A DNA stretch of 64,000 nt from the IMG/VR virus record IMGVR_UViG_3300033153_006865, positions 1,035 to 65,034 of that record. One strand, given 5' to 3'. A model generated the notes under the pieces. The model was given only the letters and a program-made list of their open reading frames with translations, searched no databases and was not told where the DNA came from. This DNA comes from a virus (lineage: Duplodnaviria; Heunggongvirae; Uroviricota; Caudoviricetes). The position numbers were made by a program, and so were the translations under genes. Positions 5,607 through 61,285 of this stretch are shown piece after piece. Position 1 is the first letter of the stretch. Every line of letters starts with the position of its first letter.

Positions 5607-6155
5607 ATGAAAAGTAAAAGATTAATATACGCATTAAAATGCCCCATCACTGATGAGATACACTACATTGGTAAAACAATACAGGGGATGACCAAGCCAC
5701 TACAACATCTGAGTAAAAGTCATTCTGATAAAGTAAAAGCTTGGGTAGGAGAGTTAAAAGAACTGGCACATGCCCCAAAGATTCAAATATTAGAAAACCT
5801 GAGTAGTGTTGATGACCTAGATAGTAGAGAAAGATATTGGATTAGAAAGAGTGTGGAGAATGGAGATTTACTTCTTAACGATTGTCTGGTATCCCCAATT
5901 ACCATAAGCAGGTCCCTTGAGAAATTGATGGGGAGCGATAGAGGTAGGGAGATGGAAGTGATCGGGAAATTTGTTAAGGAGAGAAGGAAATTAACCGGAC
6001 TCTCTCAAGAGAGGTTTGCAGATATGACAGGCATAGCCTTAACGGTTGTCCGTAAAATTGAACAAGGTAAATCAAATCTCAGTCTTAAAAGCCTTTTACA
6101 AACCCTCGAGATGTTTGGATGTACCATCGGTATACAGAAAATCAATAGGGATTAA
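5607..6155 (+). CDS. GIY-YIG endonuclease with C-terminal XRE-type HTH
   Basis: LIYALKCP...HYIGKT (GIY/YIG), RERYWIRK and LLN, plus C-terminal LSQERFADMTGIALTVVRKIEQGK helix-turn-helix. Confidence 0.7.
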   Translation: MKSKRLIYALKCPITDEIHYIGKTIQGMTKPLQHLSKSHSDKVKAWVGELKELAHAPKIQILENLSSVDDLDSRERYWIRKSVENGDLLLNDCLVSPITISRSLEKLMGSDRGREMEVIGKFVKERRKLTGLSQERFADMTGIALTVVRKIEQGKSNLSLKSLLQTLEMFGCTIGIQKINRD

Positions 6156-6333
6156 AATTAGGCTCGTCAGGAGACCTTCTCCCAATCCACGTATAAACAG
6201 ACCACATATTGTCTAAAGAGCTACCCTAATAGCCAGAATGGGCTAAATATTGTCTGTATAGACACTATGGTAGCAAGTTATCATCTTTTAATTAGGTTAG
6301 GTTTAAATATGTTATACTTTTATAAAAAATCTT

Positions 6334-6669
6334 ATGATAAGAATCTATAATAATAGAATATTCATCCCAACTTTTACAGAACATGTAAAATGGCTGATTG
6401 AGAACTCAACCCACGAGTTGTACATAGTCTATTTAAACAGTAAGAACCTGGAGAAGGAGGAAGTTAATAAGCATAACTATATTCGACTATGTAAGGAAAT
6501 TGACAGGTGCAGGGAAAAACAAATTGGGGGAGATCAAATATTTATGGTGGAGGATATAGGGGAACTAACAATGACCCATACAAGAAACTCTTATCAAGAG
6601 GTGGGTATAAATTACAGCTCCTCTATTGAAGATTTTAGGCATCTCCGGTTTGGGAGTAAAGACTATTGA
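6334..6669 (+). CDS. hypothetical protein
   Basis: 111-aa ORF. Confidence 0.4.
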   Translation: MIRIYNNRIFIPTFTEHVKWLIENSTHELYIVYLNSKNLEKEEVNKHNYIRLCKEIDRCREKQIGGDQIFMVEDIGELTMTHTRNSYQEVGINYSSSIEDFRHLRFGSKDY

Positions 6670-6872
6670 CAAAAGAGCTAATCTTTTGGGTTGCCCTAAC
6701 TCTGTGACAAAATTAAATAAAACTACTCTTATTCTATTACAAGGATCGGCTGGGCAGTCCCCACCCTAACAACAATCCAATTAGATTATCTATTATCATA
6801 CTTATCAGGTTGGCCAGATCCAACCTATCCTAAGTGATACGCAATGGTTCGTAAATATCCGAATGTGACCCT

Positions 6873-6931
6873 TAGTAAACACATATTGCATAATAAACTA
6901 GTATGGGCTATTATGCAATATGTGTTTACTA
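6873..6931. repeat. perfect 21-23 bp inverted repeat with 13-nt spacer
   Basis: gtaaacacatattgcataata ... tattatgcaatatgtgtttac, immediately 3' of the convergent HNH gene. Confidence 0.85.
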
Positions 6932-6933
6932 CT

Positions 6934-7431
6934 TCAATATGACATGAAGTAATCACCCATTTCAATCTCTACTTCGGTTCTTCTGTCCTGGGCCTGCTGT
7001 AAAGTATCAAACACTTCTCGTATTACATTTTTTATGCGTAGAGTATATCTACTCCCTCTTTTCTCAATGCAATAAGTACCATCTTTGAATCTATCAGTAT
7101 CCTTCAGCCTATTGAGTCTGTGGGATATAATTTGGGAATTCACTAATCTGTTGTCTTCCTTAATTTTATTTATATGATCGGTAACATACCGTCTACCATC
7201 TGGATGAGACCTATGTGGGAGAAACGTGTTTGTAACCATATTATGGATAAACATATATCCCTTATGGGTATCAACTGTTTTATACCCATCCTTATGTACT
7301 CTTCCAACTAAATATCTCCCAGTAGATATATTCTTAATCCTACCTAAAGTACTTACTAGGTATACATTATCTAGCTTTGGTACAAAATCCCATTCTTCCA
7401 TAATGTAAATATAAGGATTATTTTTAAGCAC
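6934..7431 (-). CDS. HNH homing endonuclease (NUMOD4/HNH_3-type, I-HmuI-like)
   Basis: WDFVP..YLVSTLGRIKN..TGR...GY..V-H..V...F....V.HIN.IK.DN...N; opposite strand to neighbours. Confidence 0.7.
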   Translation of the reverse strand: MLKNNPYIYIMEEWDFVPKLDNVYLVSTLGRIKNISTGRYLVGRVHKDGYKTVDTHKGYMFIHNMVTNTFLPHRSHPDGRRYVTDHINKIKEDNRLVNSQIISHRLNRLKDTDRFKDGTYCIEKRGSRYTLRIKNVIREVFDTLQQAQDRRTEVEIEMGDYFMSY

Positions 7432-8778
7432 TCTTATTTATTTTACAAATATCCCGTGTAAAAATAAGAAATTGGGCTGTTTCTATGCTGTTTGGACAGT
7501 TTATATGTTGGGGAGATATATGTCTGTAACCCTTACTACTATTGGGCTGTATAAATTATATGCAAATAATTAGCAAGTATGAAAGTGAGATTGGGTGAAT
7601 TTTTATATGTTTAGTACCACCTACACCCAAACTCCCCCACCCTATTAGAGTTTTGCCCCAACCCCCTATACATTTGAAAAACCAACTTTTCAAAATTTCA
7701 TCCTACAAAACGGAACCACCTATTTTAGTATTTATATTTTATACTCTCTTAATATCTATATACTACCCATAAAGTATCTGAATACTAACCTATCTACTAC
7801 ACACACATAACTATAAAACTACCTACTATTTATGTACATATATACTATAATAATATATTAAATTTAATTTAATTGCGTTTTTATATTGTTTATCCAACTA
7901 ATTGTTGTATATTAGCATAAGCGAATGAGGGGAACGTCCCTATTAACATTTACTAAGTTCTTTTTATATTTTTACCCAATAAGCAAATAGCATACTAGGA
8001 CACAATAGACCAGTCGTCCCCATTGTGAGGACGTGAAATTAATGGTTTGGAAATCGACAAAGCTTTACAGTGTTGAGGGTAAAAATATTAAAAGATTATT
8101 TTAATTCTATACCGTTTTAATTAGGTTTATTGAATTAAAAGAATTATATTTACATAAGCGTTACAAAGGTAACCATTTAGTAAAATTGACATAGGGATAA
8201 CAATATTTTTTTAATAATAACTTGCAAATTATTTGCAGTTCTTATTTATTTTCCTTATATTTGTTAAGAGTTACAAAGGTGGCTTTAATAACATTAGTTC
8301 ATTGACATACCGATTAATCACTTAAGTAGTGACGGGATTAACATTAATACTTTAAGCTTTATTAATATGGGTGCAACGCTCATTTAAGTTTGACGAACTT
8401 ACGAAATGTAAGTTATTATATTAATGCCTTTCTTTATACGGTGGTTCTATTCCTTGAAAGGTCAATTAAGAGTCGTAAGGCTTGAAAGTTGGGGGTTTGG
8501 TTAAGTGTGGCGTAATGTCCAAGGTTTGATAATAAAGAACTGATAGGTAGCCAGGGGTTGAATTCCCTTCATTAGACGTATAGAGAAGACTATACGCAAC
8601 AAAATTATATAATCTGTGCCCTTGTAGTGGTGCTAAAGGATTGAAAGCAAAACTACAAAGCTTTATTGAACGTCATGTTTAATAAAGCCCTAAGTCGTTA
8701 GACAGAATAATATTTGGCAAAGTGTCAAAATCCGTATAGGGTTGAACAAAGAAAATTTTACAAATTAATATAATTGTT
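7432..8778. other. 1.35 kb ORF-free structured region (candidate origin, early-promoter hub or large ncRNA)
   Basis: No ORF of 60 aa or more on either strand. C-rich tracts 7620..7670, extreme AT tract 7700..7900, many local hairpins 7920..8720, repeated GTTACAAAGGT...TTGACATA modules. Confidence 0.5.
8187..8225 (+). promoter_or_regulatory. sigma70-like promoter candidate
   Basis: TTGACA, 17-nt spacer, T/A-rich -10; preceded by GTTACAAAGGT at 8160. A second copy sits at 8271 (GTTACAAAGGT) and 8304 (TTGACA). Confidence 0.3.
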
Positions 8779-11034: not shown

Positions 11035-11304
11035 ATGCCACCATTAAACTCATATACTATGTACTATCAATTACACGATGCGGAGAGCGAAGAAATACTT
11101 GGAACTGTTAAAGTCAGGAACGAGAAAGAATGCCAACTTAAAGGCATTTCTCACAGCAACGAAGTTTCAGAAAGTTGGGACGATTTTAATAGGTGCGAAG
11201 AGTCTGAAAATGACCACAGGGATGTTGGGGCGTTTGTTGAATGGAACAATGAAAATAGGGTCACACAGTTGGATCGTATTTACTTAGAGTATTGTCAACC
11301 TTAA
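11035..11304 (+). CDS. hypothetical protein
   Basis: 89-aa ORF. Confidence 0.4.
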   Translation: MPPLNSYTMYYQLHDAESEEILGTVKVRNEKECQLKGISHSNEVSESWDDFNRCEESENDHRDVGAFVEWNNENRVTQLDRIYLEYCQP

Positions 11305-11750
11305 ATATTTATAAATCAAAACCAACAGTTATGAACAGGAAAGGCAGAATCTTAAATAGTGCACTCCTTAAACAGGGGAAGTATGACCGTAAAGGTAAGA
11401 GCTATATGGACCTTTACCATAACAGAGTGTTAAATAAAAGGATAGAGGATTTGATTGTTAAATCTCATGTATTAGCTATTAGAACAAGAATAAGAAAGTT
11501 TATAGATGAGTGCTACAACAGCTTCAAAGACATAGACGAAATTGTAGGGGACCTCTATCCAATGACAGATAGTTGGTTTATAGACCTCGAATGTTTTGAT
11601 ATGGGGTTTGGAGAACTTACTGATAAGGACATCGACAAATATGACCTAGACTTCTGTTTGTACATACCTGAAATAAGAGAGTGTGTAAAAGAGATTGTCA
11701 TTATGGAGATACGAAAAATTGAATCGGGTACATTAAGTATGAATCTTTAA
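11292..11750 (+). CDS. hypothetical protein
   Basis: 152-aa ORF. Confidence 0.45.
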   Translation: MSTLNIYKSKPTVMNRKGRILNSALLKQGKYDRKGKSYMDLYHNRVLNKRIEDLIVKSHVLAIRTRIRKFIDECYNSFKDIDEIVGDLYPMTDSWFIDLECFDMGFGELTDKDIDKYDLDFCLYIPEIRECVKEIVIMEIRKIESGTLSMNL

Positions 11751-11762
11751 AACAGAGATGTT

Positions 11763-12323
11763 ATGAGAAATATAGCAACAATAGTAGAACATTATCTAGT
11801 GGCTGCCCTTTGGACAAATGAGATTGATAATATGTCAGTTAAGTGTAACATGGACAGGAAGGCAATAGAGGACGCCACATTACAAGTACAATGTTTCTTA
11901 GGTGCAGCATCGGCACTGCTTACAGAAGAGTGGACAGACGAACAGATAGGTCATGATTTATGGCTTACTCGTGGTGGACATGGTGCAGGATTTTGGGACA
12001 GGGGTTTACCTAATGGCGATAAGCTTACAGAGATTTGTAAACTGTTTGAGTTTCACGGACATGTATGGGTAGACAATGATAAAGAGATTGTTTACATAGA
12101 GGGAGATGAGCAATCAATTAATTTGTTTGAACACTACGAACTACTTCCACATAATGTGCAAGATGTTTTGATGGAGTTTGGAGAGGTCGAAGATACTTAT
12201 GAAGACTGTGCAAATCTTATAACAAGACTTGAAACAGTTGGATATACTTGTAGCTACTACCTTAACACAGAACCTTTTGATTTAAGATTAAATCAAGAGC
12301 CAGACTTTAAAGGACATTCATAA
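11763..12323 (+). CDS. hypothetical protein
   Basis: 186-aa ORF. Confidence 0.45.
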   Translation: MRNIATIVEHYLVAALWTNEIDNMSVKCNMDRKAIEDATLQVQCFLGAASALLTEEWTDEQIGHDLWLTRGGHGAGFWDRGLPNGDKLTEICKLFEFHGHVWVDNDKEIVYIEGDEQSINLFEHYELLPHNVQDVLMEFGEVEDTYEDCANLITRLETVGYTCSYYLNTEPFDLRLNQEPDFKGHS

Positions 12324-12356
12324 ACTAATAATCACTATCATTAAAAACTTACTACT

Positions 12357-12578
12357 ATGAATGGGTACAGAACAGACGAACAATTTGAAACTATATGTGA
12401 AAATATGGTAAATGGTAACTGGAGTGACGCAGCTCAAAATTGTGTTGACTTTGGCTTCTACGCTAATGATTTGAGCAACAAACAAGAAGAATACGAAGAT
12501 GCTGGAATGAACCCAATTACTGATAGAATGGACTTCGCCACCCTTTGTGAAATGGCTACGGAATTAAGACATAAGTAA
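12357..12578 (+). CDS. hypothetical protein
   Basis: 73-aa ORF. Confidence 0.4.
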   Translation: MNGYRTDEQFETICENMVNGNWSDAAQNCVDFGFYANDLSNKQEEYEDAGMNPITDRMDFATLCEMATELRHK

Positions 12579-12604
12579 AATTAATTATTACTAAAACTAT
12601 TACA

Positions 12605-13351: not shown

Positions 13352-13432
13352 CAGTCGTTTGAGCGACTCAAAACTTCATTAAGCTCAAAGCGTCCCACTT
13401 AGGTGGGGGTTGAACCATTAATAATCACTATC

Positions 13433-13648: not shown

Positions 13649-13659
13649 AAATTTGAGTT

Positions 13660-14196: not shown

Positions 14197-14204
14197 GCAC
14201 TATC

Positions 14205-14510: not shown

Positions 14511-14511
14511 T

Positions 14512-14748: not shown

Positions 14749-14779
14749 GGCAATATTGCCGTCATCAATAATCACTATC

Positions 14780-21944: not shown

Positions 21945-21949
21945 ACACT

Positions 21950-22627
21950 ATGTCAAACTACAAACCTCTGCCAAAAGAAATAAATGGACTAAAGATTATT
22001 AAAGATTTAGGCAGAATATACCCTACCGAGAAGTCAAAGAGAAAGGAGAGGTTCGCAATTCTATTGTGTAGGTGTGGAGAAGAGTTTAGGGCCAGAACAG
22101 ATAGTATTAAAAATGGGAGTACAACATCTTGTGGATGTGTACAAAGGTCATTAACCGCTGAGAGGTCTATTACACATAACTTATCCAAACACCCACTATA
22201 CAAGACGTGGGGGAATATGAAGAGGCGTTGCTACAATAAAAATAGAGAAGATTATGATAACTACGGAGGCCGGGGTATTAAGGTCTGTGACAGGTGGTTA
22301 GACTCTTTTCCAAACTTCCTGTCTGATATGGGGGTAAAACCTTCTAAATCCCACTCTCTTGACAGAAAAGAAAATGACGGGGATTACACCCCTGAAAATT
22401 GTAGATGGGCCACAAAAGAAGAGCAGACACTTAACCAACGTATAATGAAAACAAACAAGACAGATTTTGTTGGTATATCCTTTAGTGGAGGTAAACTTAG
22501 ATCGGTTATTTACTACAAAGAGAGGCAAACCCACCTGGGAACATTTGACACTCCTGAAGAAGCTGCAAGAGTAAGAGATAAATATATTATTGACAATAAT
22601 TTACCCCATAAACTATCAAAACTATGA
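21950..22627 (+). CDS. AP2-domain homing endonuclease
   Basis: LYKTWGNMKRRCYN...YGGRGIKVCDRW..FPNFLSDMG nuclease module plus C-terminal AP2 (GISFSGGKLRSVIYYK..HLGTFDTPEEAARVRD). Confidence 0.7.
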   Translation: MSNYKPLPKEINGLKIIKDLGRIYPTEKSKRKERFAILLCRCGEEFRARTDSIKNGSTTSCGCVQRSLTAERSITHNLSKHPLYKTWGNMKRRCYNKNREDYDNYGGRGIKVCDRWLDSFPNFLSDMGVKPSKSHSLDRKENDGDYTPENCRWATKEEQTLNQRIMKTNKTDFVGISFSGGKLRSVIYYKERQTHLGTFDTPEEAARVRDKYIIDNNLPHKLSKL

Positions 22628-23046
22628 ATATTAAAGAAGCAAACAAACTAATATCTGAATATATGTATCCAGATTGGGTACATCCAGAGGACACATCAGA
22701 ACATATTACACCTCTCCTAGAAGCTGTTGGAGGAAGCTATGCTGTTCTTGCCAGACTATTAGATGAGGATTATGAAAGTTTAAACTTTCATAACTCATGG
22801 AGCTCTTTGATGAAAGTAGTAATTAAGATCACCAACTTCAAATTTGTAGGTGATCTTAATGGAGACCACGCCTACTTTAGAACATTTGGAATGAAGACAA
22901 AAGGGACTGATCTATATATGGTAAGAATAAATAGATTTAAGGTGCACACAGCTGAAGAGTTTATCGATGCAGCCTATGCAGCAGTAGTAGAATTTATTAA
23001 TTGGTACAACGAAAACAAAAATGATGACGGACAAGTTAGTAGCTGA
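22624..23046 (+). CDS. paralog-family protein (copy 4 of 4)
   Basis: KLISEYM, NSWSSLMKVV and AAVVEFINWYNENKND. Confidence 0.55.
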   Translation: MNIKEANKLISEYMYPDWVHPEDTSEHITPLLEAVGGSYAVLARLLDEDYESLNFHNSWSSLMKVVIKITNFKFVGDLNGDHAYFRTFGMKTKGTDLYMVRINRFKVHTAEEFIDAAYAAVVEFINWYNENKNDDGQVSS

Positions 23047-23335
23047 GAGATACCTCTCAAAAATAGATAGGGCAAAAATAAATGGAGTAGACTTCGACCT
23101 AAGCTTTAATGAGTTTAAAGCACTCATGAACATAAAGAAGTGTCAGATAACTGGAAAGGTTTTCACCACACACGGAGACAATGCAATTTCCCTAGACAGA
23201 CTTGATAATTATAAAGGCTATATAAAAAGCAATGTGATTGCATGTACAAAAAGAATCAACACCCTAAAAGGGAATCTTACCCCTAGTGAAATTAAAGCAA
23301 TTTATAAACTCTTGTTAAAACAAAAATTGGTATGA
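23024..23335 (+). CDS. small HNH-like endonuclease
   Basis: ISLDRLDNYKGY...NV.ACT..IN.LKGN. Confidence 0.45.
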   Translation: MTDKLVAERYLSKIDRAKINGVDFDLSFNEFKALMNIKKCQITGKVFTTHGDNAISLDRLDNYKGYIKSNVIACTKRINTLKGNLTPSEIKAIYKLLLKQKLV

Positions 23336-27241: not shown

Positions 27242-27918
27242 ATGAGGGAGTTGAAACCATTACCAAAAGAGATAAACGGTATTAAGGTTGTTAAAGATTA
27301 TGGGACTATCTTCCCTACCGAGACTTCTAAAGAAAGGAAGAGGTATGCTACATTTTTATGTAGGTGTGGTGCTGAGTTTAAGGTCAGAGTCTCTAGTGTG
27401 AAGAATGGTGACACTACCTCTTGTGGCTGTTTAAAGACCAAATTATTTTTGAGACAATTGTCAAACATGGGTTACATAGGCACCCTCTATACAATACGTG
27501 GTCTAACATGAAGAAGAGATGTTATAATATAACCAATAAGGACTACAAACATTATGGAGAAAGAGGAGTAGAGGTTTGTGACAGGTGGTCAAACTCTTTC
27601 CCAAATTTTCTAGAGGATATGGGTGAAAAACCATCACAAAAACACTCTCTTGATAGAGAAGATAATGATGGAGATTACACACCAGAAAATTGTAGGTGGG
27701 CAACAAAAACTCAGCAAAATATTAATCAAAGGGTACGTAAAAATGCCTCTGGTTATACAGGAGTTGTTGTTAACCGTGGAAAATGGAAATCCCGTGTATC
27801 TTATAAGGGCAAAGTAAATCACATCGGCACTTACGACACTATAGAAGAGGCAGTAAAATCGAGGAATAGTTACATAATCAAAAATAATTTACCACACAAA
27901 ATTCAAGAATATGGATGA
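27242..27918 (+). pseudogene. AP2-domain homing endonuclease, frameshifted paralog of 21950..22627
   Basis: Same architecture, split across two frames (27242..27511 and 27421..27918) with the break near the T5 run at 27446..27450. Confidence 0.6.
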
Positions 27919-37009: not shown

Positions 37010-37198
37010 TTGTATATTAGCGAAATGAAAGACGTACCGGAAAAAGATAGAAGATATTCCCTCAGAATGACACTTATGGGAAAGCAAGAGTTTTTAATAA
37101 ATTCTAAATCCTACCCGTATTGCCTAATGGTAAGAAAAGATAAAGAAAACCTAATCCAATTTAAAGATGCCTCGTTCGAAATTGTGAGGGTTTTATAA
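37010..37198 (+). CDS. hypothetical protein
   Basis: 62-aa ORF. Confidence 0.3.
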   Translation: MYISEMKDVPEKDRRYSLRMTLMGKQEFLINSKSYPYCLMVRKDKENLIQFKDASFEIVRVL

Positions 37199-38286
37199 TG
37201 GCTAGGAAAAAGACACATAAAGAATTTGTAGACCAACTAAGGGAGGTTCAACCTAATCTGACTGTTATAGGAGAGTATGCCAAGGATAGTAAAAAATTAC
37301 TTGTTAAAGATCATCTTGGGATAAGATACTCAACCTCTCCATCTAATCTATTACAGGGTAATAAGCCCTCTGCTGTGTTAGCGGTAGACAAAGACAATTG
37401 GTTTAGAGTAAGAAGTAAACAAATTCACGGAGAATCTTATGATCACTCTAGATCAAAATACTTAGGAGACTCTGTTAAAGTAGAGATTATCTGTCTAAGA
37501 CATGGGTCTTTTTGGCAGACTCCTGCATCACATCTAAAAGGTAGGGGATGTATGGAATGTGGGCATGTAGCTACAGCTAAAAGTAAAAGAAAAACTACAG
37601 ATGAGTTTATTTTAGAGGCGGAGAATATTCATCAGGGAGTCTATGACTACTCTAAGTCACAATATATTAACTCAAAGACAAAAATAAATATAATTTGTCC
37701 CAGTCACGGAGTATTTACACAGGTTCCAAACGATCACCTAAATGGTCACGGGTGCACTTCGTGCGCCTATGCGTCAAATAGTAAGACAACAGAACAATTT
37801 ATATACAAGGCGAATAAAATACATAAGGGTACATACTCCTACTATGATACTGTGTACACTTCATCTGCCTCTGAAGTAGTTATAACTTGTAAAATACATG
37901 GGGCTTTTAAACAAAAACCAAAGGTGCACCTAGAAGGACATGGGTGTAAGAAATGCGCCTCATACAACCATCCTGGATCCTATGCGTCTGTATGTAAATA
38001 TACCCCTGACCATTTGGTACCATTGTACATAATTAAATGTTCCTACAAGGACGAAGTTTTTTACAAAATTGGGCTGTCAATTGACTGTAGGACCAGATTT
38101 TATGGGATACCTTATGAAATAGAACTCCTTAAAATCATTGAAGGTCCTATAGGTAGGACCTATCCATTAGAGCAATCTCTAAAAAAGAAATACGCAATAT
38201 ATAAATATATACCTCAAAAGTATTTTGGTGGGTACACAGAGTGCTTTTCAGTAAACCCACTAAAATACTTTAAAGAATTAAAATAA
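37198..38286 (+). CDS. T5orf172 (GIY-YIG-like) endonuclease with triplicated zinc-ribbon repeats
   Basis: Three HG.F.Q.P..HL.G.GC..C repeats, then C-terminal YIIKC..YKIGLSID...E......F.GGYTECF T5orf172 signature. Paralog of 53758..54855. Confidence 0.7.
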   Translation: MARKKTHKEFVDQLREVQPNLTVIGEYAKDSKKLLVKDHLGIRYSTSPSNLLQGNKPSAVLAVDKDNWFRVRSKQIHGESYDHSRSKYLGDSVKVEIICLRHGSFWQTPASHLKGRGCMECGHVATAKSKRKTTDEFILEAENIHQGVYDYSKSQYINSKTKINIICPSHGVFTQVPNDHLNGHGCTSCAYASNSKTTEQFIYKANKIHKGTYSYYDTVYTSSASEVVITCKIHGAFKQKPKVHLEGHGCKKCASYNHPGSYASVCKYTPDHLVPLYIIKCSYKDEVFYKIGLSIDCRTRFYGIPYEIELLKIIEGPIGRTYPLEQSLKKKYAIYKYIPQKYFGGYTECFSVNPLKYFKELK

Positions 38287-42369: not shown

Positions 42370-42759
42370 ATGGAAAATGAATTTTACGTGGGTCAGAAAA
42401 TATGTTGTGTTAATTCTGTGTTTGACCACAACCAGAATTTCTTCGACACATACTTTCAAGAGTTGCCTGAGGAGAATATAACTTACACAGTTAGAGAAGT
42501 GGATGGAGAGAGTGTTCTTCTGGAGGAAATTATCAATAAACCTCGTCCATTTAGTCTGGGAGGGACGGTAGTTCAGTTAGAACCCGGTTTCAACACAAAG
42601 AGATTTGTCCCACTTGATACAAAAGAAGAAAGTGATTCGTATGCTGATAGCATACTTAAAAACCTAGAGGAAGGATTTACTGAAGTTAGAGAATTAACTG
42701 GTGTAGAGGACGAAGGCTACAAAACTGATTTTTCACCTGAGAGATTTGATAAAGTATGA
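42370..42759 (+). CDS. hypothetical protein
   Basis: Internal start MENEFY chosen; the ORF track starts at 42322. Confidence 0.4.
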   Translation: MENEFYVGQKICCVNSVFDHNQNFFDTYFQELPEENITYTVREVDGESVLLEEIINKPRPFSLGGTVVQLEPGFNTKRFVPLDTKEESDSYADSILKNLEEGFTEVRELTGVEDEGYKTDFSPERFDKV

Positions 42760-43280
42760 GCAGTAGAATTTATGATCTTAATCGTAGGAGGTCTTTAATA
42801 GGCAAAGCTAAAGTAATATACGATAGCCAAGTTAAGTCTACTAAGAAGAAAGGCCATCCCCCAATGGAGTATAATAAAAAAGAGTTTGTAGACTGGCTAA
42901 TATCACAACCGGAATATTTAAAACTTCACAAAGCTTGGGTGAAATCTGGATATGATATGTGGCTGGCCCCATCTTGTGACCGTCTCGATGATTACTTAGG
43001 ATACACTTTTAAGAATCTCCGAATAGTAACTTGGAAGGTTAATTATGACAAAGGTAATAATGATACAAAATCAGGTATTAATAATAAACGTAATAAGGCA
43101 GTAGTAAAATTAAGATTGAATCAAGAATTTGTTGAAGAACTCCACTCCTTAGCTGAGGCACTTAGAGTGACAGGAGTGCGTAATATAGGTCAGGTCTGTA
43201 GTGGCAACAGACCATTAGCTGGGGGTTTTAAATGGATGTTTAAAGAAGATTACGAAAAATTAAAAATAGATAAGAAATGA
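42756..43280 (+). CDS. degenerate-HNH homing-endonuclease-like protein with NUMOD-type C-terminal motif
   Basis: APSCDRLDDYLGY..NLRIVTWKVN (HNH-like fold) and C-terminal IGQVCSGNRPLAGGFKW. Paralog of 60653..61285. Confidence 0.55.
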   Translation: MSSRIYDLNRRRSLIGKAKVIYDSQVKSTKKKGHPPMEYNKKEFVDWLISQPEYLKLHKAWVKSGYDMWLAPSCDRLDDYLGYTFKNLRIVTWKVNYDKGNNDTKSGINNKRNKAVVKLRLNQEFVEELHSLAEALRVTGVRNIGQVCSGNRPLAGGFKWMFKEDYEKLKIDKK

Positions 43281-51633: not shown

Positions 51634-53064
51634 TTAAACTTCTCCCATTATTGTCTGACGAATTGCCTCTTTACAACGATTCACTAATCCAGGTCCATAC
51701 TTGGAAGTATCTGCATTCTCAATATACCACAGTAGATAACCTTGATGATTTTCGGCTATCCAAGTGAGCTTTTTACCTTTGTGTTTGCCAAAAGGGATTA
51801 TACCTAAATCAGTCTTACCTTTAACTATACCGTTGTGTTTATCTTTTAAATCCTGTCTGGTTATGTTAATCTGCCCCCCAATTGGAACACCTGTTACAAC
51901 CTTATCCCCTGCAAAAACTGTCCAGCCCTTGTTGTACTCAACATTTTCTATAGATAGTAATCTTGGATGTCCTAACCTACTTACATTCCCACAACAATCC
52001 ACGAATACAAAATCCTTCTTTCCCTCAGCTATTCTAACGCCCCTACCATAAATTTGATAGGCTACAGCTAAACTATTTGTAGGCCTTCCTAATATAATTG
52101 CATCTAACTCAGGACAATCAAAACCTTTATCTAGCGTAGCGAAGTTAAACATAATCTTCAACTCCCCTTCTTGGAACCTTCGTATATTCTCTTCCCTGTC
52201 TTTTTTCTTTGTTGATCCGGTTATCATAGCAGCTACCTCTCTGCCAAACCCTTTAGGCCCATTACACCAATTCACAAATACCTCTGCATTTTGTACTGAA
52301 TCTACAAATACAAGAATCCTATCCCGCTGGCCTGAATCAATTAATTGCTTTAGTCTTACACAGATAGATCTGTTGACTCCATTTGACTCATTAGCCCTTA
52401 TTACAGTCTCTTCCTTGTAAGCACTTCCTGTGGTATTTAATTCCAATTCTGTCTCATCATATATCCAACTCTCATCAACTGATGGAGCCCAGAATCCAAG
52501 ATCAATTATCTCTGATATTTGCTGAACATATCCAATTTCTGCAAAATATCTAGGGCGGGTACGGTTTAACATCTTCAAAGTAGATCCGCCAAATGAGTTG
52601 TATAACCTAAAAGGGGTTGCAGTAAATCCAATTGATTTATAAGGTCTAATCCTACTGGTAAATCTCATGAACTGTGATCCCCTGTCTGGAGAGGCCTTGA
52701 AGTGACACTCATCTGTAATTAACAGAATGTTCTTAATCTTGGACAGATTTTCAGCCTCCTTTATTATTGATCCCATGGTGGCATAAGTTATATGTCCCAA
52801 CTCTTTTACACCTAGAGATGCACTATATACAGAACATTCTCCACCAAGTAGCTTAAACTTCTCAACATTTTGGGCTAAGAGTTCCTTGGATGGTTGAAGT
52901 ACTACAATGGGTCCATCATGCACTTTTGCTATTCCAGCAATTACCCAAGATTTACCACTGCCTGTGGGAAGGACAGCAACTATTGGCTTTGCCGAAGTGC
53001 CTTGTATATATTTTATACATACATCAACACACTCTTGTTGGTAATCTCTTAAGGCTGCTTTCAT
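51634..53064 (-). CDS. SF2 DEAD/DEAH-box (ResIII-type) DNA helicase
   Basis: LRDYQ, Walker A LPTGSGKS, DEAH-like ITDECH. Confidence 0.8.
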   Translation of the reverse strand: MKAALRDYQQECVDVCIKYIQGTSAKPIVAVLPTGSGKSWVIAGIAKVHDGPIVVLQPSKELLAQNVEKFKLLGGECSVYSASLGVKELGHITYATMGSIIKEAENLSKIKNILLITDECHFKASPDRGSQFMRFTSRIRPYKSIGFTATPFRLYNSFGGSTLKMLNRTRPRYFAEIGYVQQISEIIDLGFWAPSVDESWIYDETELELNTTGSAYKEETVIRANESNGVNRSICVRLKQLIDSGQRDRILVFVDSVQNAEVFVNWCNGPKGFGREVAAMITGSTKKKDREENIRRFQEGELKIMFNFATLDKGFDCPELDAIILGRPTNSLAVAYQIYGRGVRIAEGKKDFVFVDCCGNVSRLGHPRLLSIENVEYNKGWTVFAGDKVVTGVPIGGQINITRQDLKDKHNGIVKGKTDLGIIPFGKHKGKKLTWIAENHQGYLLWYIENADTSKYGPGLVNRCKEAIRQTIMGEV

Positions 53065-53138
53065 AATAAGTGGTCTATTTTTCTCTGTTTGAGAGTATAG
53101 TAATGTTTGTAGAGTACCTTTGCTCGTTCATATTTTCC

Positions 53139-53757: not shown

Positions 53758-54855
53758 TTATTTTAACTCTTCAAAATGTTCTAGTGGATTAATTGAAAAG
53801 CACTCAGTGTGGCCACCGAATTTTATATTTGGTGTATACTGGTGTTCTTTATATTTATCAATGCACAACTGCTCTAAGGGGAAGGTTTCATACAGCCTCC
53901 CTTCAATTAGTTTAAGATGCTCTACTTTATAAGGAAACGCTCTGTGCCTAACCTTATAATCTATGGACAGTCCTATCTTATAGAATACTTCACTATCAGA
54001 TGTGCACTTTACTACATAAAGAGGGACATGTTTATTAGGGTCTGATCTGAACACTGCTTCATATCCTCCTGGTATTCCTTCATCTCCACATTTTATACAT
54101 CCATGACCTTGGAGATGTTTACTAGGGTTTTGTTCAAATACACCATGATTATTACACTTAATTTTAACCTTCATCCTTGAAGTTAAATATTCAACGAATT
54201 GATAATCATATTTATTCCCATGAATTTCTATTGCTTTGTGTTTAAAACATTTATTTTTATCAACTGCTAGTTGTATTGTAGGTGCTGAGCCTTTTAACAT
54301 CCCTGATGGCGTCGCTAGGTATCTTATACCTCCTTTATCTTCAACTAATATTTTTGTGGTGGCTCCTTTAAAATCTCCGATAACGTTAAGCTCTGGATGT
54401 ATACACTTTAATTTCTTAGTAAAGTTAGCCTTCTCCCTCTGTGAGGCTGGAGGTGTATTACATGAACATTTACTACACCCATGTCCTAGAAGATGGTTGC
54501 TAGGAGTCTGGGAGAATAAACCATGTGTCTTACACACTATCTCCACTTTTTTACTGCAGAGCTCATATCTAATGTGGGAATAATCATATTTATCTCCGTG
54601 TACCAGCCTACTTTTTACTATAAAACACTCTGTTTTATCTACAGCGGCTCCAATCGATGGTGCTGACCCCCTTAATAAATTTGTTGGTAGGCACATATAT
54701 TCAGTACCTAGTTTATCTACTACTTTTAATAGTGTTTTAGAGTGGGTGTATCTTCCAACCACAGTGAGTCCAGGTTGGACACTTTTCAACCTTGTTACAA
54801 ACTCAATATGTGTCCTTTTTACTTCCCATGGTGTAAAGATACAAATTAATCTCAT
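53758..54855 (-). CDS. T5orf172 (GIY-YIG-like) endonuclease with zinc-ribbon repeats; paralog of 37198..38286
   Basis: Repeated HG.F.Q.P..HL.GHGC..C and C-terminal VPLYVVKC..SEVFYKIGLSIDY...GGHTECF. Inserted between the polymerase and helicase genes. Confidence 0.7.
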   Translation of the reverse strand: MRLICIFTPWEVKRTHIEFVTRLKSVQPGLTVVGRYTHSKTLLKVVDKLGTEYMCLPTNLLRGSAPSIGAAVDKTECFIVKSRLVHGDKYDYSHIRYELCSKKVEIVCKTHGLFSQTPSNHLLGHGCSKCSCNTPPASQREKANFTKKLKCIHPELNVIGDFKGATTKILVEDKGGIRYLATPSGMLKGSAPTIQLAVDKNKCFKHKAIEIHGNKYDYQFVEYLTSRMKVKIKCNNHGVFEQNPSKHLQGHGCIKCGDEGIPGGYEAVFRSDPNKHVPLYVVKCTSDSEVFYKIGLSIDYKVRHRAFPYKVEHLKLIEGRLYETFPLEQLCIDKYKEHQYTPNIKFGGHTECFSINPLEHFEELK

Positions 54856-54866: not shown

Positions 54867-56876
54867 TTAATGGACCTCTGCATAATTTTTTCCAACCATC
54901 ACGTCAATTTCTATTTCAAAAGGAAAATTAAAAATTTTATTTACTTGTTGCATACTTTCTCTAAGGATTAGTTCTGTCTTTTCAATATCCTCTGGGTTAT
55001 TTTTCGCATATAGTCCGACCTCATCATGAAACTGCATTATGGGTTTTATGCCCCTCTGTATCATTTCGTAGCACCAATAGTCAAATACTTTTACGCCTGC
55101 ATTTTGATTCAATACAGAGAATCTAAGGTGGTCAGAGGTTAATAATAGCCACAACTTTGATATTGGATTATATATAAACTCCCTACCATCTGAAATAGTT
55201 TTCGTCCTCTGGTCAGCTGCATATTGTTTTACTGCCCAATTTATCTCCCAGTACGCATCTAGTAATTTCTTTGCTTCTTTATAGGTTCTCCCAATACTCT
55301 CTGAAAGTTTTTGGGCTCCTACTCCATAAACACTAGAGTAGTTTACTGTTTTGGCCGATGCTCTTGTCTTGTTAATGTCTTCAAATAAGTGGTGGTGTTC
55401 CTCATAATTCATACCAACCCATTCCTGTAATTCAGGATCTGCTTGTAACTCACTAATCAATTCAGCAGTGATCTCCTCTTTTCTGTGAACCTTTTCAAAT
55501 CTTTTGAACCACCTATAGAATTTTACTTCCTCAGCAGTTAACATATCTGCCTTTACTCCAATCTCAAGATGACTGTCATATCCAGTACCACTCATAGAAT
55601 TTACATAATCTGGATCATAAGGAAATATTGCTGCTTTCTTTGTCTGATCTTCCAAAGAGCTTATGTCAGAACCTACTAATACATAACCTTCTGGGGCCAC
55701 CATAACAGACCTAACAAACTCGCCATAGGCTGCTGTTGGTTTTGGTAAATTTTGAAAACCTCCACCATGTTTGAGCCTAAGAGTTTTAGCAAACCCATTT
55801 GCTCTGGCTGGCATATATCCATTCTCATCTACTGTTTTTAAGAATTTAGTTAAGTATCCCAGACGATGCTGAGCCACAGACAATCCACTAAGAGCTTGTA
55901 GAGATGGATTACTTTCAATAAGTCTGTCAATGTCCCTACAAAGAGTTTTCTCATCGTCGTCATTCTTCAATTGTGGTACTTTATCCCCAGTGCTGGTACT
56001 TTTCTTGTAAACACTTGGTTCCCATCCCAGAGTAAATAAGTACGTCTTCATCTGTGCTACAGATTGTGGGTTTGGTTCTATGTATTTTGTAGTTACAATA
56101 ACTTCCCCATCATACTCATGAGGATAGCCTATTTGGTCCATTAAATCGAACCACTTCTGGCCTGTATTACTCATAGTGCCGTCCTTTTTAAAGGGTTTTG
56201 CAGGTCTTTTTCTCTTTGCTGTTACAGGAACTTCGGGCATTAACTTTTTAAGCTCCTCGACTTTCTCGTCCACAATAGCTTGTAAGATGTCTGAATTCTT
56301 TTGGCATTGGACTACATCTATTAACACCTGGTTCTCGTCTTGTATAACAAGACACTCCATCTTGAAGTTTGAGTAGTTTATTACCTTTTCAATCTCTGCG
56401 TCAGTGTCGTAAAGCTCTCTTAAAACACCTAAGAATTTAACCCACATTCCAATCTGTAATTTGGTATCAACCTCACAACGTTCTTTATACTCCTCGTAGG
56501 AGAGGCCCTTCCAATCTTCAATCTCTACTTTACCTACTTCATCTCCATACATTTCTTTTGCCCACGCAGCGACTCCGTGTTGCATCTTATCTGGATATAA
56601 CATCCAACTTAAAGATAAAGTATCAATGATTGTACAGTTTACTGTATAGCCTAGCTTTTCAAACGCACGTTTATCATATGGTAATCCATTGTGGAATGCT
56701 AACACTTTTTCTGGGTCTCCTAATAGACTTTGAATACTGTCTCGGTCATTGGTTGATCTAATCTCCCAGACATTTTGTTCATTGACAAATCCTATAGAAA
56801 GTACATGGCACTTTGTAAGGTCTTCAAGTAAAGAGTCAAATTCTGCGTCGGCTATGATTACACTATTTAAATTCAT
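54867..56876 (-). CDS. family A DNA polymerase (T7-like, with 3'-5' exonuclease)
   Basis: Exo I IIADAEFDSL, Exo II AFHNGLPYD; pol motif A GSDISSLE, motif B RASAKTVNYSSVYGVG, motif C QFHDEV. Confidence 0.85.
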   Translation of the reverse strand: MNLNSVIIADAEFDSLLEDLTKCHVLSIGFVNEQNVWEIRSTNDRDSIQSLLGDPEKVLAFHNGLPYDKRAFEKLGYTVNCTIIDTLSLSWMLYPDKMQHGVAAWAKEMYGDEVGKVEIEDWKGLSYEEYKERCEVDTKLQIGMWVKFLGVLRELYDTDAEIEKVINYSNFKMECLVIQDENQVLIDVVQCQKNSDILQAIVDEKVEELKKLMPEVPVTAKRKRPAKPFKKDGTMSNTGQKWFDLMDQIGYPHEYDGEVIVTTKYIEPNPQSVAQMKTYLFTLGWEPSVYKKSTSTGDKVPQLKNDDDEKTLCRDIDRLIESNPSLQALSGLSVAQHRLGYLTKFLKTVDENGYMPARANGFAKTLRLKHGGGFQNLPKPTAAYGEFVRSVMVAPEGYVLVGSDISSLEDQTKKAAIFPYDPDYVNSMSGTGYDSHLEIGVKADMLTAEEVKFYRWFKRFEKVHRKEEITAELISELQADPELQEWVGMNYEEHHHLFEDINKTRASAKTVNYSSVYGVGAQKLSESIGRTYKEAKKLLDAYWEINWAVKQYAADQRTKTISDGREFIYNPISKLWLLLTSDHLRFSVLNQNAGVKVFDYWCYEMIQRGIKPIMQFHDEVGLYAKNNPEDIEKTELILRESMQQVNKIFNFPFEIEIDVMVGKNYAEVH

Positions 56877-58387: not shown

Positions 58388-58581
58388 AAGTCAATTCTAA
58401 AAGTCCTATGAAAGGTCATTAGAATTATGTGTGGTAACAGCTATGTTGGAGTGTGAGTTTGAGCTTTGCCTCTAATGGGCCGCAATTCTAATTAATCCAA
58501 CTCTTCTACTGTTCAACCACGGATCAAATGTAGTTATAATTTATTTAATCTCCAAATTTCATATGAAGATTACCAATACTA

Positions 58582-59382
58582 TTAACCTTTTGGTACTTCT
58601 CTTTCCATGACAAGCTGTCTACAAGCTGCGTAGAAACCACATCCTGGAGTTTCCCCAGCCATATTTGAAATATCATCAATGCTCAACAATCTTTTATAGG
58701 TTAATGAAACTTCGAATGCTGCATCATAACTAGCAAAGTTTAAAATATCCCCTGGTGTACCAGGGGACTCTGAATCTACAATTTCTCCTACCTTTACACC
58801 ACTTGTGTATACTACGAAATACTCATCATCTTCATAAATAGATTTTCCATCCTCAGTTATAAGTATGGGATCCTTTTCCTCTGGTTGACTCTCTTTTTCA
58901 GAGGCTTCAACGAGGGCTATAATATCCCCCTCTAAAAACTTGAATCCTGCAACTATACAATCATTTTCGTGCACAATTATACTGTCTCCCACGCTTAATA
59001 TAAAATCAGTGGAATCTTCCACAGCTGTGATTTCGTATCTGTCCGACCCAAAAAACTCCTCTTCGCCATCCATAATTCGAACAAGGTTTAGATCCGAAGT
59101 CATGTAGATATTGAAAGCTACTAATGTATATTCTATTTTTAAAATTTTGTCGATAAAAGAGTATACCTTGTCTATAGTAACCTCATCACATTCATCACAT
59201 TTAGATATCGGCCCTTCTTTTACAGCGTGTTGAGGTTCTCCCCCACCGTAAATACCCAACCTCTTCATTAATTCAGAAGGACTGTTAAATACTGCCATTA
59301 AGGACTCAGTATCAGAGTTTAATAGGTGTGATAAACGACTCTTTAGTATGTCGGCTTTCAGTTCAATTTTTTCTTTTTCCAT
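58582..59382 (-). CDS. hypothetical protein
   Basis: 266-aa ORF. Confidence 0.5.
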   Translation of the reverse strand: MEKEKIELKADILKSRLSHLLNSDTESLMAVFNSPSELMKRLGIYGGGEPQHAVKEGPISKCDECDEVTIDKVYSFIDKILKIEYTLVAFNIYMTSDLNLVRIMDGEEEFFGSDRYEITAVEDSTDFILSVGDSIIVHENDCIVAGFKFLEGDIIALVEASEKESQPEEKDPILITEDGKSIYEDDEYFVVYTSGVKVGEIVDSESPGTPGDILNFASYDAAFEVSLTYKRLLSIDDISNMAGETPGCGFYAACRQLVMEREVPKG

Positions 59383-59393
59383 TGTCTTTGTTT

Positions 59394-60635
59394 TTAAAAT
59401 GGTGCTTCTACTACACCGGGTTTATTGTCATTACTTTGTTTACTTTCTAAATTTTCTTCTGGCTCCGGTTGTACATTATGTCCTTCCTCAAAACCATTTC
59501 CTCTTGCGGCCTCTAGCACTTTGTTATTAGGAATAACTATGGTCGTCATATCAAATTCTGGAGGACCAGTCTTTTTTGGTTTAAAAGTTGGAGCCTTTTT
59601 CTCAATCTTTGCCTCCTCAGAATAATACTGCTTGGTTATTTCATCTTCTTTTGTGAAATCAATAATATCACAGAACATCCTTGGTGCGGAAAAATCATCA
59701 TTCAATCTAATCTTTATATAATTATAATAAATCCTATTTCGTCCCTTTAAACGTACTGATTTATTATCAGTGCTATCATCAACGAAATGTTCAGATAAAT
59801 GATCATTCCTCTCACGATGTACACTAGTATACTCATCAAGTCCAACAACTTGTGGTATTACTTGGGTCATGATTAAGTCTGCAAACTGATATAAAGAATC
59901 TGTATTGTAGATATGGGATGAATTAGGTACATAACTCTTTGGGTTTGTTTTTACCTTTGCATCTATGCTGCCTCTCCAAGCCCTTTCTAATTCTCTGTTC
60001 AATTGAAAAAATATAATGAATGTAAGATTCTTGTGCTTCTTTTTCAGTTCGTTACATAGAGATAAAAACTCATCAATTTCCTTTTTAGTAAGGATTACAT
60101 GAATGTGATCTATTAGCACCACCACCTCATCTTGAGGTCCTTTTGCTATATAGTTCTCAATTAAATGTCTAAAATTCTCTCCTGTGACAACCTGGTCAAA
60201 GGTGAGTGCCCTTGGATCCATTAGGTTATTTATTGTCTGTGTCACCTTCTCCTTCTCCTCAGCATTGAATTTGTTATTGAGGATGTCTTTTATCCCCTTT
60301 CCTAGTTTCTGCTGCATCGCTCTCAAAACAGTGGACTTTAAAGTCATCTCCCAATCTAAATTCAACAGTCTTATATTAGCACCTTTATTCAAGGTTTCAT
60401 CTAGAAGACTTTTCTTTATTACAGCAGACGTATATGTCTTACCCTGACTTGGTCTGGCTCCTATAAATATCATCTGATTGGAGGCTCCTGATACTAGGGT
60501 ATTATCTAGATGCTCGATACCTAACTTCAGTAGAGGTATCTTTCCATGCTGGACATCAGCAATCTCTGCACATGCCTCAATGACTCTATTATCAGCCCCA
60601 GAAAGTATATTGTCTATTTCTTTTGTCGTTATCAT
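59394..60635 (-). CDS. DnaB-family replicative helicase (RecA-like C-terminal domain)
   Basis: GIEHLDNTL.G...QMIFIGARPSQGKT Walker A as in DnaB; Walker B VVLIDHIHVI. Confidence 0.7.
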   Translation of the reverse strand: MITTKEIDNILSGADNRVIEACAEIADVQHGKIPLLKLGIEHLDNTLVSGASNQMIFIGARPSQGKTYTSAVIKKSLLDETLNKGANIRLLNLDWEMTLKSTVLRAMQQKLGKGIKDILNNKFNAEEKEKVTQTINNLMDPRALTFDQVVTGENFRHLIENYIAKGPQDEVVVLIDHIHVILTKKEIDEFLSLCNELKKKHKNLTFIIFFQLNRELERAWRGSIDAKVKTNPKSYVPNSSHIYNTDSLYQFADLIMTQVIPQVVGLDEYTSVHRERNDHLSEHFVDDSTDNKSVRLKGRNRIYYNYIKIRLNDDFSAPRMFCDIIDFTKEDEITKQYYSEEAKIEKKAPTFKPKKTGPPEFDMTTIVIPNNKVLEAARGNGFEEGHNVQPEPEENLESKQSNDNKPGVVEAPF

Positions 60636-60652
60636 TAGTGCGAATGTAGTTA

Positions 60653-61285
60653 TTAATTTTGGTTTGTCCTAATGTTCTTCATTTTTTCATAGTCCTCTTT
60701 ATGCATCCATTTAAATCCCCCAGCTGTGCTTCTGTTGCCATTACAAACTTCTGAAATATTTGCATGGCCTATATTTGTTTGCCTGTAGGCTTCCTTCATT
60801 GAATAATATTCCTCAACAAACTCCAAGTCCAACGCTAACTGGACAATAGTCTTACTAGCCTTGTTATTGACACCACTTACCCTATCGAAATGGGATTTAT
60901 TTAGATTCTCCTTCCAAGTCTTGATTTCAATTCTTTCAAGGCTGTAGGGTTTATAGTCATCTGTCCTATCACACGATGGGGCTAGCCACCTACTGTAGTC
61001 AGACTCCACCCACTCTTTGTGGAGTCTTAGATACTTAGGCTGCTTGATAAGCCAATCAACAAGCTCCTCCTTTGTGAATTCGGGTAGGGTGTGGCCCCTT
61101 GTTTTTGAAGAACTTACCTGAGTATCGTAAATCTTTTTTGCCTTACCCGTCAAGGTCCTAATCCTGATAAACTTCACCTCGCCTGCACACTGCTTACACC
61201 AGGTATGGACACCTTCTGCATGATCTTTAGAATCATAAAAATCAGCCTTGTCCTTAGCTGCCCTACATTTTGTACATACTTTCAT
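60653..61285 (-). CDS. degenerate-HNH homing-endonuclease-like protein with N-terminal zinc finger; paralog of 42756..43280
   Basis: CTKC...CKQC; APSCDRTDDYKPY..RIEIKTWKEN; C-terminal ISEVCNGNRSTAGGFKW. Sits between the DnaB-like gene and the next gene. Confidence 0.6.
   Translation of the reverse strand: MKVCTKCRAAKDKADFYDSKDHAEGVHTWCKQCAGEVKFIRIRTLTGKAKKIYDTQVSSSKTRGHTLPEFTKEELVDWLIKQPKYLRLHKEWVESDYSRWLAPSCDRTDDYKPYSLERIEIKTWKENLNKSHFDRVSGVNNKASKTIVQLALDLEFVEEYYSMKEAYRQTNIGHANISEVCNGNRSTAGGFKWMHKEDYEKMKNIRTNQN

Follow-up and report, generated by a model that had tools for sequence, protein, structure and literature searches.

Free-standing homing endonuclease genes (HEGs) are a recurrent feature of tailed phages. 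Phage T4 contains 15 HEGs, which amount to 11% of its coding potential, and intronless homing has been established for its seg and mob genes (PMC2988022). Pectobacterium phage CB7 harbours 23 HEGs, the HNH open reading frames (ORFs) alone covering approximately 7% of the genome (PMC7344957), and phage ICP1 is enriched in T5orf172/zinc-finger and AP2-associated HNH architectures (PMC10448857). The restriction enzyme PacI and a largely viral group related to it have no catalytic His, the role of which is played by a Tyr residue of the omega loop (PMC5714182; PMC3384342). Here, we analysed a stretch of 64,000 nucleotides (hereafter the window; positions 1,035 to 65,034 of the IMG/VR record IMGVR_UViG_3300033153_006865), derived from an uncultured tailed phage. 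It carries nine free-standing HEG-type genes (ten with a gene cut by the window end), which, with a probability of roughly three in four, represent mixed stages of the HEG life cycle and spread by intronless homing.

An earlier note, prepared from the letters of the window, had listed nine HEG-like genes of five architectures. All nine ORFs are present and each matches nuclease or HEG families, and the list actually holds six architectures (Table 1). Three of the genes (5607, 37198 and 53758; named after their first coordinate) are assigned to the GIY-YIG superfamily and six (6934, 21950, 27242, 23021, 42756 and 60653) to the His-Me finger superfamily. The HEG-type ORFs sum to 6,032 bp, i.e. 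9.4% of the window. This density had been described as exceptional; set beside the values for CB7 and T4 it is high, yet within the range reported for phages. PHROG scans of 60 other ORFs revealed no further HEGs. The tenth HEG-type gene, cut by the window end, is located between a primase-like gene and a gene of 1897 amino acids, and corresponds to positions 2509-3123 of locus L002, which is identical to the window. An eleventh gene, encoding a NUMOD4 protein of 182 amino acids (L084 1714-2262), was observed approximately 3.2 kb before window position 1, between a 526-amino-acid gene and a GroEL-like gene.

A scan of the whole window against Rfam (gathering scores) detected no group I, group II or other intron family, the sole hit being a Pistol ribozyme, and the ORFs flanking the HEGs are intact. 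The genes are therefore free-standing, as had been proposed, and an intron-encoded origin was ruled out. They occupy intergenic positions close to genes of DNA metabolism. The suggestion that some of them interrupt conserved modules also held: 53758 separates polA from a 200-amino-acid ORF that precedes the DEAD/ResIII helicase gene, and 60653 is placed between the DnaB_C gene and the 191-amino-acid gene 61288. Two other candidates were rejected. The surplus length of the 375-amino-acid ThyA protein is not an intein, but results from several dispersed insertions common to its relatives, and a terminase-associated HNH role does not apply, as none of the genes adjoins a terminase gene.

Support for mobility comes from related phages. 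A near-identity DNA search against sequenced phages gave no match, and the PolA protein of the window is at most 36.6% identical to that of any sequenced phage. The nearest metagenomic PolA (53% identity) belongs to an uncultured phage group whose contigs measure 80-150 kb. The comparison set comprised 24 IMG/VR loci around PolA homologs, together with loci obtained by walking the contig of the closest relative. The closest relatives (loci L003, L004, L020 and L026) encode PolA proteins 51-52% identical to that of the window. The presence/absence comparison that the earlier note had recommended revealed sites without a HEG in the nearest relatives at five positions (37198, 42756, 53758, 60653 and the edge gene), the flanking genes being directly adjacent at three of them. 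Thus, the homolog of 61288 directly adjoins the DnaB homolog in L003, L004, L020 and L026, while in L003, L020 and L026 the homolog of 42322 is followed directly by that of 45807 (42756 site) and the primase homolog adjoins the giant gene (edge site). At the 53758 site of the same three loci, polA is followed by a non-HEG ORF of 141 amino acids, and at the 37198 site the homolog of 38298 is preceded by small non-HEG ORFs (L003 and L091).

Protein locus scans and contig walking found no relative with recognisable flanking genes for the sites of 5607, 6934, 23021 and 27242; in the walk toward these sites (L091 and L123) the early-region genes were too diverged and their order was not collinear. 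Single-protein locus scans (polA, the 4525 gene and ligase) found no relatives either. Relatives show no collinearity at the 21950 site, and their homologs of the upstream gene occur without an attached HEG. Homologs of the HEG families of the window were rare in approximately 110 related loci and never occupied the same positions, being placed elsewhere in the more distant relatives. Other HEGs were found at the same hot spots: a T5orf172 gene lies exactly between the 61288 and DnaB homologs in L025, a NUMOD4-HNH-AP2 gene homologous to 6934 abuts polA directly upstream in L009-L012, and an AP2-HNH-like gene is found there in L017. The mobility of the genes is supported by these empty sites, together with the presence of other HEG families at shared hot spots.

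Several further features were observed in the related loci. The polA gene of L020 (9998-12925) has an intein-sized insertion, and PolA homologs of 790-1026 amino acids (P0005, P0013, P0017, P0019, P0021 and P0110) contain in-frame insertions, one of them with LAGLIDADG_3; related phages thus have inteins in polA, and none is present in the polA gene of the window. Two HEGs look like domain swaps: in L023 (14917-15921) the same zinc-ribbon repeats as in 37198 are fused to a canonical HNH domain instead of T5orf172, and in L035 (9411-10175) a canonical HNH domain and a PacI-type DR…Y…N core are present in one ORF.

The gene order in this region has also been rearranged. The block composed of the 200-amino-acid ORF and the helicase gene (51634-53741) is inverted with respect to polA in L003 (12533-14592), L026 (12491-14553) and L020 (14508-16446), and the more distant L005 and L006 share the co-directional arrangement of the window. 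One breakpoint of this inversion falls at 53758 and the other, at approximately 47.1 kb, has no HEG. The paralog pairs on opposite strands had been proposed as substrates for genome inversion, which was rejected: their longest exact matches are 14 and 12 nucleotides, with short stretches of 74-81% identity, and the inversion seen in the relatives has a HEG at a single breakpoint only.

Table 1. Coordinates of the HEG-type genes of the window and of conserved genes adjoining them.
Gene	Position	Strand	Length (amino acids)	Predicted architecture or product	Remarks
5607	5607..6155	+	182	GIY-YIG-like N-domain, XRE-type HTH_3 C-domain	
6934	6934..7431	-	155	NUMOD4 and HNH_3-like endonuclease	Length from the start at 7401 called by the Joint Genome Institute (JGI)
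21950	21950..22627	+	225	AP2-associated HNH-type (IPA-HNH-like) endonuclease	Apparently intact
23021	23021..23335	+	103-104	Small stand-alone PacI-type His-Me-finger-like protein	No DNA-binding domain
27242	27242..27918	+		Frameshifted paralog of 21950	ORFs 27242-27511 and 27421-27918
37198	37198..38286	+	362	T5orf172 (GIY-YIG superfamily) endonuclease; N-terminal module and three zinc-ribbon repeats	
42756	42756..43280	+	174	PacI-type His-Me finger and NUMOD-like tail	Lacks the N-terminal zinc ribbon of its paralog
DEAD/ResIII helicase	51634..53064	-		DEAD/ResIII helicase	Forms a block with the 200-amino-acid ORF 53139-53741
53758	53758..54855	-	365	T5orf172 endonuclease, paralog of 37198	Other repeat arrangement
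polA	54867..56876	-	669	Family A DNA polymerase	PF00476; conserved neighbour, synteny anchor
DnaB-like helicase	59394..60635	-		DnaB-like helicase	PF03796, phrog_37407; conserved neighbour of 60653
60653	60653..61285	-	210	Zinc ribbon, helical region, PacI-type beta-beta-alpha-metal core, I-HmuI-like NUMOD tail	
Edge gene (63754)	63754..64000, continuing past the window end	-	204	NUMOD4/HNH_3, HEG-type	PF07463, PF13392; 3' part in the window

The paralogs 42756 and 60653 (58% identity, both matching phrog_1035) had been described as carrying a degenerate HNH domain. A word-indexed homolog search with 60653 alone returned only its paralog, and a query built from an alignment with phage homologs was needed. 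This retrieved 199 proteins, in which Pfam sees only NUMOD1 and the NUMOD-like tail of I-HmuI. Among 46 diverse members of the family, P103, D106, R107, Y114 and N127 are invariant, the last four being core residues of 60653, and the same S-x-D-R…Y…N core is present in 42756. The family profile matched I-HmuI (1U3E; E 5.8e-5), with core and tail aligned and an Arg at the position of the catalytic His, as well as PacI (3LDY; E 3.5e-4), along the N-terminal zinc ribbon and the core, which aligns column for column with the PacI motif GVDRSDSFEGY…CN. A direct search of PDB sequences with 60653 gave no nuclease match. In the AlphaFold 2 (AF2) model of 60653, whose predicted local distance difference test (pLDDT) score is 95.7, a beta strand (103-107) is followed by an omega loop with Y114, a second strand (119-123) and a helix (124-137). 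Foldseek comparison of this model gave 1U3E and 3LDY as the sole matches with probability 1.00.

The invariance of the DR…Y…N core and its match with the PacI-type active site argue that these genes carry a variant, and not a decayed, nuclease core, which we predict from profile and model comparison to be a Tyr-variant His-Me finger of the PacI type. Membership in the endonuclease VII/DHHRN family was ruled out. This family is defined by the DHDH motif with an invariant first His, flanks of CX2-4C and CX2C, and conserved R and N residues (PMC6083498), while in the window proteins the His position is occupied by Arg and the Asn is not surrounded by cysteines. A homolog of 60653, ORF15.1 of the unrelated phage G7C, occupies a typical HEG site between the conserved N4-like genes for subunit B of RNA polymerase RNAP1 and subunit A of RNAP2.

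The His-less DR…Y…N signature was found in five of the nine genes (21950, 27242, 23021, 42756 and 60653). The His-Me fold is well supported for 60653, 42756 and 23021; for the AP2-HNH genes 21950 and 27242 it is supported at the level of the motif only. The protein encoded by 21950 matches phrog_374 (HNH endonuclease; E 1.6e-63) and has homologs in 1055 phage records, Polaribacter phages being among its best phage homologs. Neither the AP2 nor the HNH family of Pfam matches 21950 or 27242. A profile of the C-terminal tail of 21950 and its relatives matched plant AP2/ERF structures (WRI1 7WQ5, E 3.8e-11; 7ET4, 8.9e-6; 5WX9, 9e-4), and direct searching of PDB sequences with 21950 gave no nuclease match. 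The core of these genes, HSLDR…DGDY…N, gave no match in a PDB profile search; the form found in 21950, HSLDRKENDGDY…N, was aligned with the 60653-family core by hhalign over a 29-residue motif only (E 7e-4, probability 26%).

The second AP2-HNH gene, 27242, is disrupted. Its halves are 57-60% identical to 21950 and appear as two linked tblastn high-scoring segment pairs in different frames. According to the sequence and its three-frame translation, the frame is broken at a run of five T residues (27446-27450), and a sixth T would give a single ORF. The same frameshift is present in an independent sibling contig.

The small gene 23021 matches both phrog_3118 (HNH; E 6.5e-23) and phrog_1400 (Srd; E 2e-22), and was linked with the 60653 family by hhalign (probability 84%, E 7e-6). 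Over residues 18-91, the identity of its product with T4 Srd amounts to 40%. In its N-terminal region, T4 Srd (L122 738-1484) contains S-L-E-R…G-Y…N, i.e. a PacI-type core in which Asp is replaced by Glu, and this sequence likeness suggests that Srd derived from a PacI-type nuclease fold. Srd is a conserved protein of T-even phages, reported to be an activator of RNase E (PMC4980113). Gene 23021 may encode either a HEG-like nuclease or a Srd-like factor, and is possibly not a HEG.

The predicted T5orf172 paralogs 37198 and 53758 match an endonuclease family, phrog_681 (E 1.3e-62 and 1.2e-41, respectively). They are 42% identical, with their modules shuffled. The alignment revealed repeats of the form C..HG.F.Q.P..HL.G.GC..C, of which there are three in 37198 and two in 53758. 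Zinc-finger matches were obtained with DUF4379 (E 2e-4 and 4e-3, under the cut-off) and CapR (E 0.038), and PF05265 (DUF723) is precomputed for 53758; both genes thus encode zinc-finger DNA-binding repeats of the CapR/DUF723/DUF4379 type. The Pfam T5orf172 model (PF10544) does not match 37198 or 53758 even at E 10. Full-length homologs that align with them at the C-termini, from phages Skate and 141O35-1, pass its cut-off of 20 (28.6 and 28.2 bits, respectively) and contain MUG113 (37.9 bits, cut-off 22.3), and both window proteins retain the Y…YKIG…R…E…TECF motif. The Skate homolog is situated between the portal and head-morphogenesis genes, again a typical HEG site in an unrelated phage. Direct searching of PDB sequences with 37198 gave no nuclease match, and its AF2 model, built from a two-sequence alignment, was too poor for use (pLDDT 61.8, falling to less than 50 over the C-terminal nuclease domain).

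Gene 5607 combines a strong HTH_3 match (E 6e-10) with an N-terminal region that is below the Pfam cut-off for GIY-YIG (PF01541; E 0.009, 16.7 bits, cut-off 22.6). When its 115 N-terminal residues were used as query in an exhaustive HMMER search, 1780 homologs were obtained. Among 50 of these sampled, 43 have HTH_3 and 18 match GIY-YIG at E <=1e-3 (best 4e-6), and since this combination recurs, the architecture represents a real and widespread family. Residues Y8, Y20, G22, H34, E75 and N91 are invariant in the family. Position 30, which we take from the motif spacing to be the Arg of the GIY-YIG catalytic set (R27 of I-TevI), is Lys in 5607 and Arg in 49 of the 50 homologs. In a PDB sequence search, 5607 matched HTH proteins only, and no nuclease.

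The remaining gene, 6934, lies in the plus arm, where it is the only gene of this section on the minus strand. It matches NUMOD4 (40.7 bits, cut-off 23.4) and phrog_959 (HNH; E 3.5e-17), and more weakly HNH_3 (E 0.046, 13.8 bits, cut-off 24.8). Its translation contains the D-H…N…N motif TDHINKIKEDNRLVNSQIISHRLN, with the His of a canonical His-Me finger. It is adjoined by 1.35 kb without called genes (7432-8778), in which there was no Rfam match and no excess of promoter-like or terminator-like sites, and just short AT-rich repeats were found.

These observations suggest the following course of events. Each gene would join a nuclease module with a DNA-binding module (XRE-type HTH, NUMOD4, NUMOD-like tail, AP2 or repeated zinc ribbons). 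In a cell co-infected by a related phage devoid of the HEG, the enzyme would cleave the HEG-less allele close to the site of insertion, either inside or next to a conserved gene (e.g. polA, DnaB, primase, exonuclease or thyA). With the HEG-carrying genome as the template of recombinational repair, the HEG would then be copied along with flanking markers, resulting in marker exclusion. The genes of the window may represent various stages of such a cycle: about six to seven of them look intact, 27242 is frameshifted, 5607 has Lys in place of Arg, and 23021 lacks a DNA-binding domain.

The window constitutes approximately half of a phage genome of about 130 kb, probably assembled as a circle. Its G+C content is low (0.359), its genes are located on the plus strand until approximately 47.1 kb and on the minus strand after that, and there are no tRNA genes within its 64,000 nucleotides. 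The genome also codes for GroES, DHFR, guanylate kinase and a PAPS-reductase-like protein. Exact matches to window proteins were found on JGI metagenome contigs of 126.5 kb (sample 3300033148) and 130.3 kb, and the pieces of the 126.5 kb contig, together with a 3.3 kb contig from a third sample, were 100% identical to the window over the 51.6 kb compared. The sole difference concerned a homopolymer (16881-16891), with 11 G residues in the window and 10 in the sibling contig, which may indicate either a variable tract or an artefact of sequencing.

At its two ends, the 126.5 kb contig maps to window positions 11057 and 14778, so that the window stems from the longer, probably circular assembly; these ends are the exact borders of a 3.7 kb segment (11058-14777) missing from the 126.5 kb contig. 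No repeats were found at these borders, and the gap could result from a break in the assembly or mark a region close to the physical ends of the genome. The segment includes the Pistol ribozyme, which is full-length (13353-13414, plus strand; RF02679, 61.5 bits, gathering score 34.5, E 9e-9) and is placed between ORFs 12605-13351 and 13403-13648. No Shine-Dalgarno-like sequence was visible upstream of the HEG starts inspected (e.g. 5577-5606, 21920-21949 and 42726-42755). Together with the Polaribacter phage homologs and the low G+C content, this hints at a host from the Bacteroidota.

Several points weigh against the proposed spread by homing. Cleavage and mobility are predicted from sequence, as are the nuclease activity and target sites of the putative enzymes, and for the activity of a PacI-type core lacking the canonical His there is one characterised enzyme from which to argue by analogy. 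The link between the AP2-HNH core and the PacI-type core is weak, and T4 Srd, to which 23021 is homologous, is not known as a HEG. At the 42756 site the relatives are also devoid of non-HEG genes (those for the HD hydrolase and MazG, and thyA). In general, the relatives are very distant (PolA identity of at most 53%) and their gene order is partly rearranged, so that absence of a HEG is not proof of its recent gain in the window. The three independent contigs revealed no HEG polymorphism, and the G+C content of the HEGs (0.34-0.41) is near that of the window, leaving no mark of recent import. The earlier note had described homing as ongoing, which goes beyond these data: as the contigs are identical and the next relative has only 53% PolA identity, recent gain or loss is not visible.

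An alternative, which we consider a serious though not the favoured possibility, is that a substantial subset of the genes are domesticated or decaying derivatives, 23021 being a Srd-like host-takeover factor, 5607 an XRE-type regulator with an attenuated GIY-YIG domain and 27242 a pseudogene. The Srd match of 23021 and its lack of a DNA-binding domain, the Lys at position 30 of 5607 alongside a strong HTH_3 domain, and the frameshift of 27242, identical in two assemblies, all fit this explanation. On the other hand, 23021 retains D-R…Y…N where T4 Srd has E-R, and in 5607 Lys is a conservative replacement for Arg, with which activity may be retained. In the other six genes the nuclease and DNA-binding architectures are complete and the family-invariant residues kept, and neither domestication nor decay explains the empty sites of the relatives.

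It might also be supposed that the nucleases are chiefly weapons of the phage, acting like restriction enzymes against host DNA, competing phages or satellites. PacI itself functions in restriction, and a role as viral restriction enzymes has been proposed for its homologs in viruses (PMC5714182); in ICP1, T5orf172 and CapR-type domains act in the conflict between phage and satellite (PMC10448857). We regard this explanation as improbable, as long modular DNA-binding regions, intergenic sites next to conserved genes, sporadic distribution and a frameshifted copy are the signature of HEGs and not of a maintained weapon, and nine separate weapons within 64 kb would be unparalleled. Finally, the idea that the excess of such genes is an artefact of annotation or assembly (a chimeric assembly, misjoined contigs or chance ORFs), to which the metagenomic source and the position of most Pfam matches of these ORFs under the curated cut-offs might lend some colour, can hardly be entertained given the identical contigs from other samples, PHROG E-values down to 1e-63, hundreds to thousands of homologs and the confident model of 60653.

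Intronless homing by genes at different stages of the HEG life cycle therefore remains the explanation that we favour. The genes add new members, from a novel lineage of uncultured phages, to known HEG families, and provide an environmental example in which several unrelated, selfish endonuclease genes bracket a replication module. The occurrence of different HEG families at shared hot spots (upstream of DnaB and around polA) fits the view of HEGs as boundaries of genetic exchange, and introduces no new principle. What is mildly novel is the assignment of the His-less cores to the PacI type and the link with Srd. This assignment yields testable catalytic residues for widespread, uncharacterised phage genes annotated as “endonuclease VII” or “HNH”. 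The PacI-type core is known biochemically from the restriction enzyme PacI only. It is tempting, though rather doubtful, to go further and consider the five genes with the S-x-D-R…Y…N core as representatives of a major, largely unrecognised class of phage homing endonucleases, provided that they are active. Such a class, defined by PacI-type Tyr chemistry, would unite the AP2-containing “IPA-HNH” genes, the widespread “endonuclease VII” or “HNH” genes resembling G7C ORF15.1, and a domesticated offshoot including Srd.

Comparison with the described systems places the window closest to several of them in different respects. Like ICP1 (PMC10448857), it encodes predicted T5orf172 proteins with repeated CapR/DUF723/DUF4379 zinc fingers (37198 and 53758), as well as IPA-HNH genes, 21950 and 27242 being unseen by Pfam HNH_3 and having a C-terminal AP2 domain. 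The frameshift-split gene 27242 has its counterpart in gp115/gp116 of ICP1, and in both phages essential replication genes are enclosed by HEGs in the manner of “HEG islands”. The two lineages are, however, unrelated; the IPA-HNH-type core of the window is read here as PacI-like (DR…Y…N), and variable presence among close relatives was observed for the HEGs of ICP1. The T4 seg and mob genes (PMC2988022) are likewise free-standing and intergenic, include a mix of GIY-YIG and HNH enzymes, and form a similar load, but their families are Seg and Mob, in contrast to the mostly T5orf172 and PacI-type cores of the window.

Among characterised enzymes, I-HmuI (1U3E) is the best profile and Foldseek match of the 60653 family, with the metal-ligand positions D and N kept. 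It differs in that its general base, His75, is replaced by Arg in the 60653 family, and it is an intron-encoded enzyme that nicks DNA, whereas the free-standing 60653 includes a zinc ribbon at the N-terminus. The label of phrog_1035, “endonuclease VII”, points to F-CphI and T4 endonuclease VII (PMC6083498), which share the His-Me superfamily with 42756 and 60653; the DHDH motif with its CX2-4C/CX2C flanks is absent from the window proteins, and the position of H41 is occupied by Arg. Escherichia phage G7C ORF15.1 and the “endonuclease VII” of rV5 are directly homologous to 60653 (35% identity, 92% of its length covered); they reside in different phages and are known from records as putative HNH homing endonucleases. 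R.PacI (3LDY/3M7K; His-Me finger group 20, PMC5714182), the second-best profile and Foldseek match (141 of 142 PacI residues aligned), shares with this family the N-terminal CxxC…CxxC zinc ribbon and the G/S-x-D-R-x-D-x3-G-Y…N core, in which the omega-loop Tyr stands for the catalytic His. PacI is a restriction enzyme that forms homodimers and has an 8-bp site; a second zinc site is found around its core, and it lacks NUMOD and AP2 tails, whereas the genes of the window have DNA-binding tails of the HEG type and occupy genomic positions typical of HEGs.

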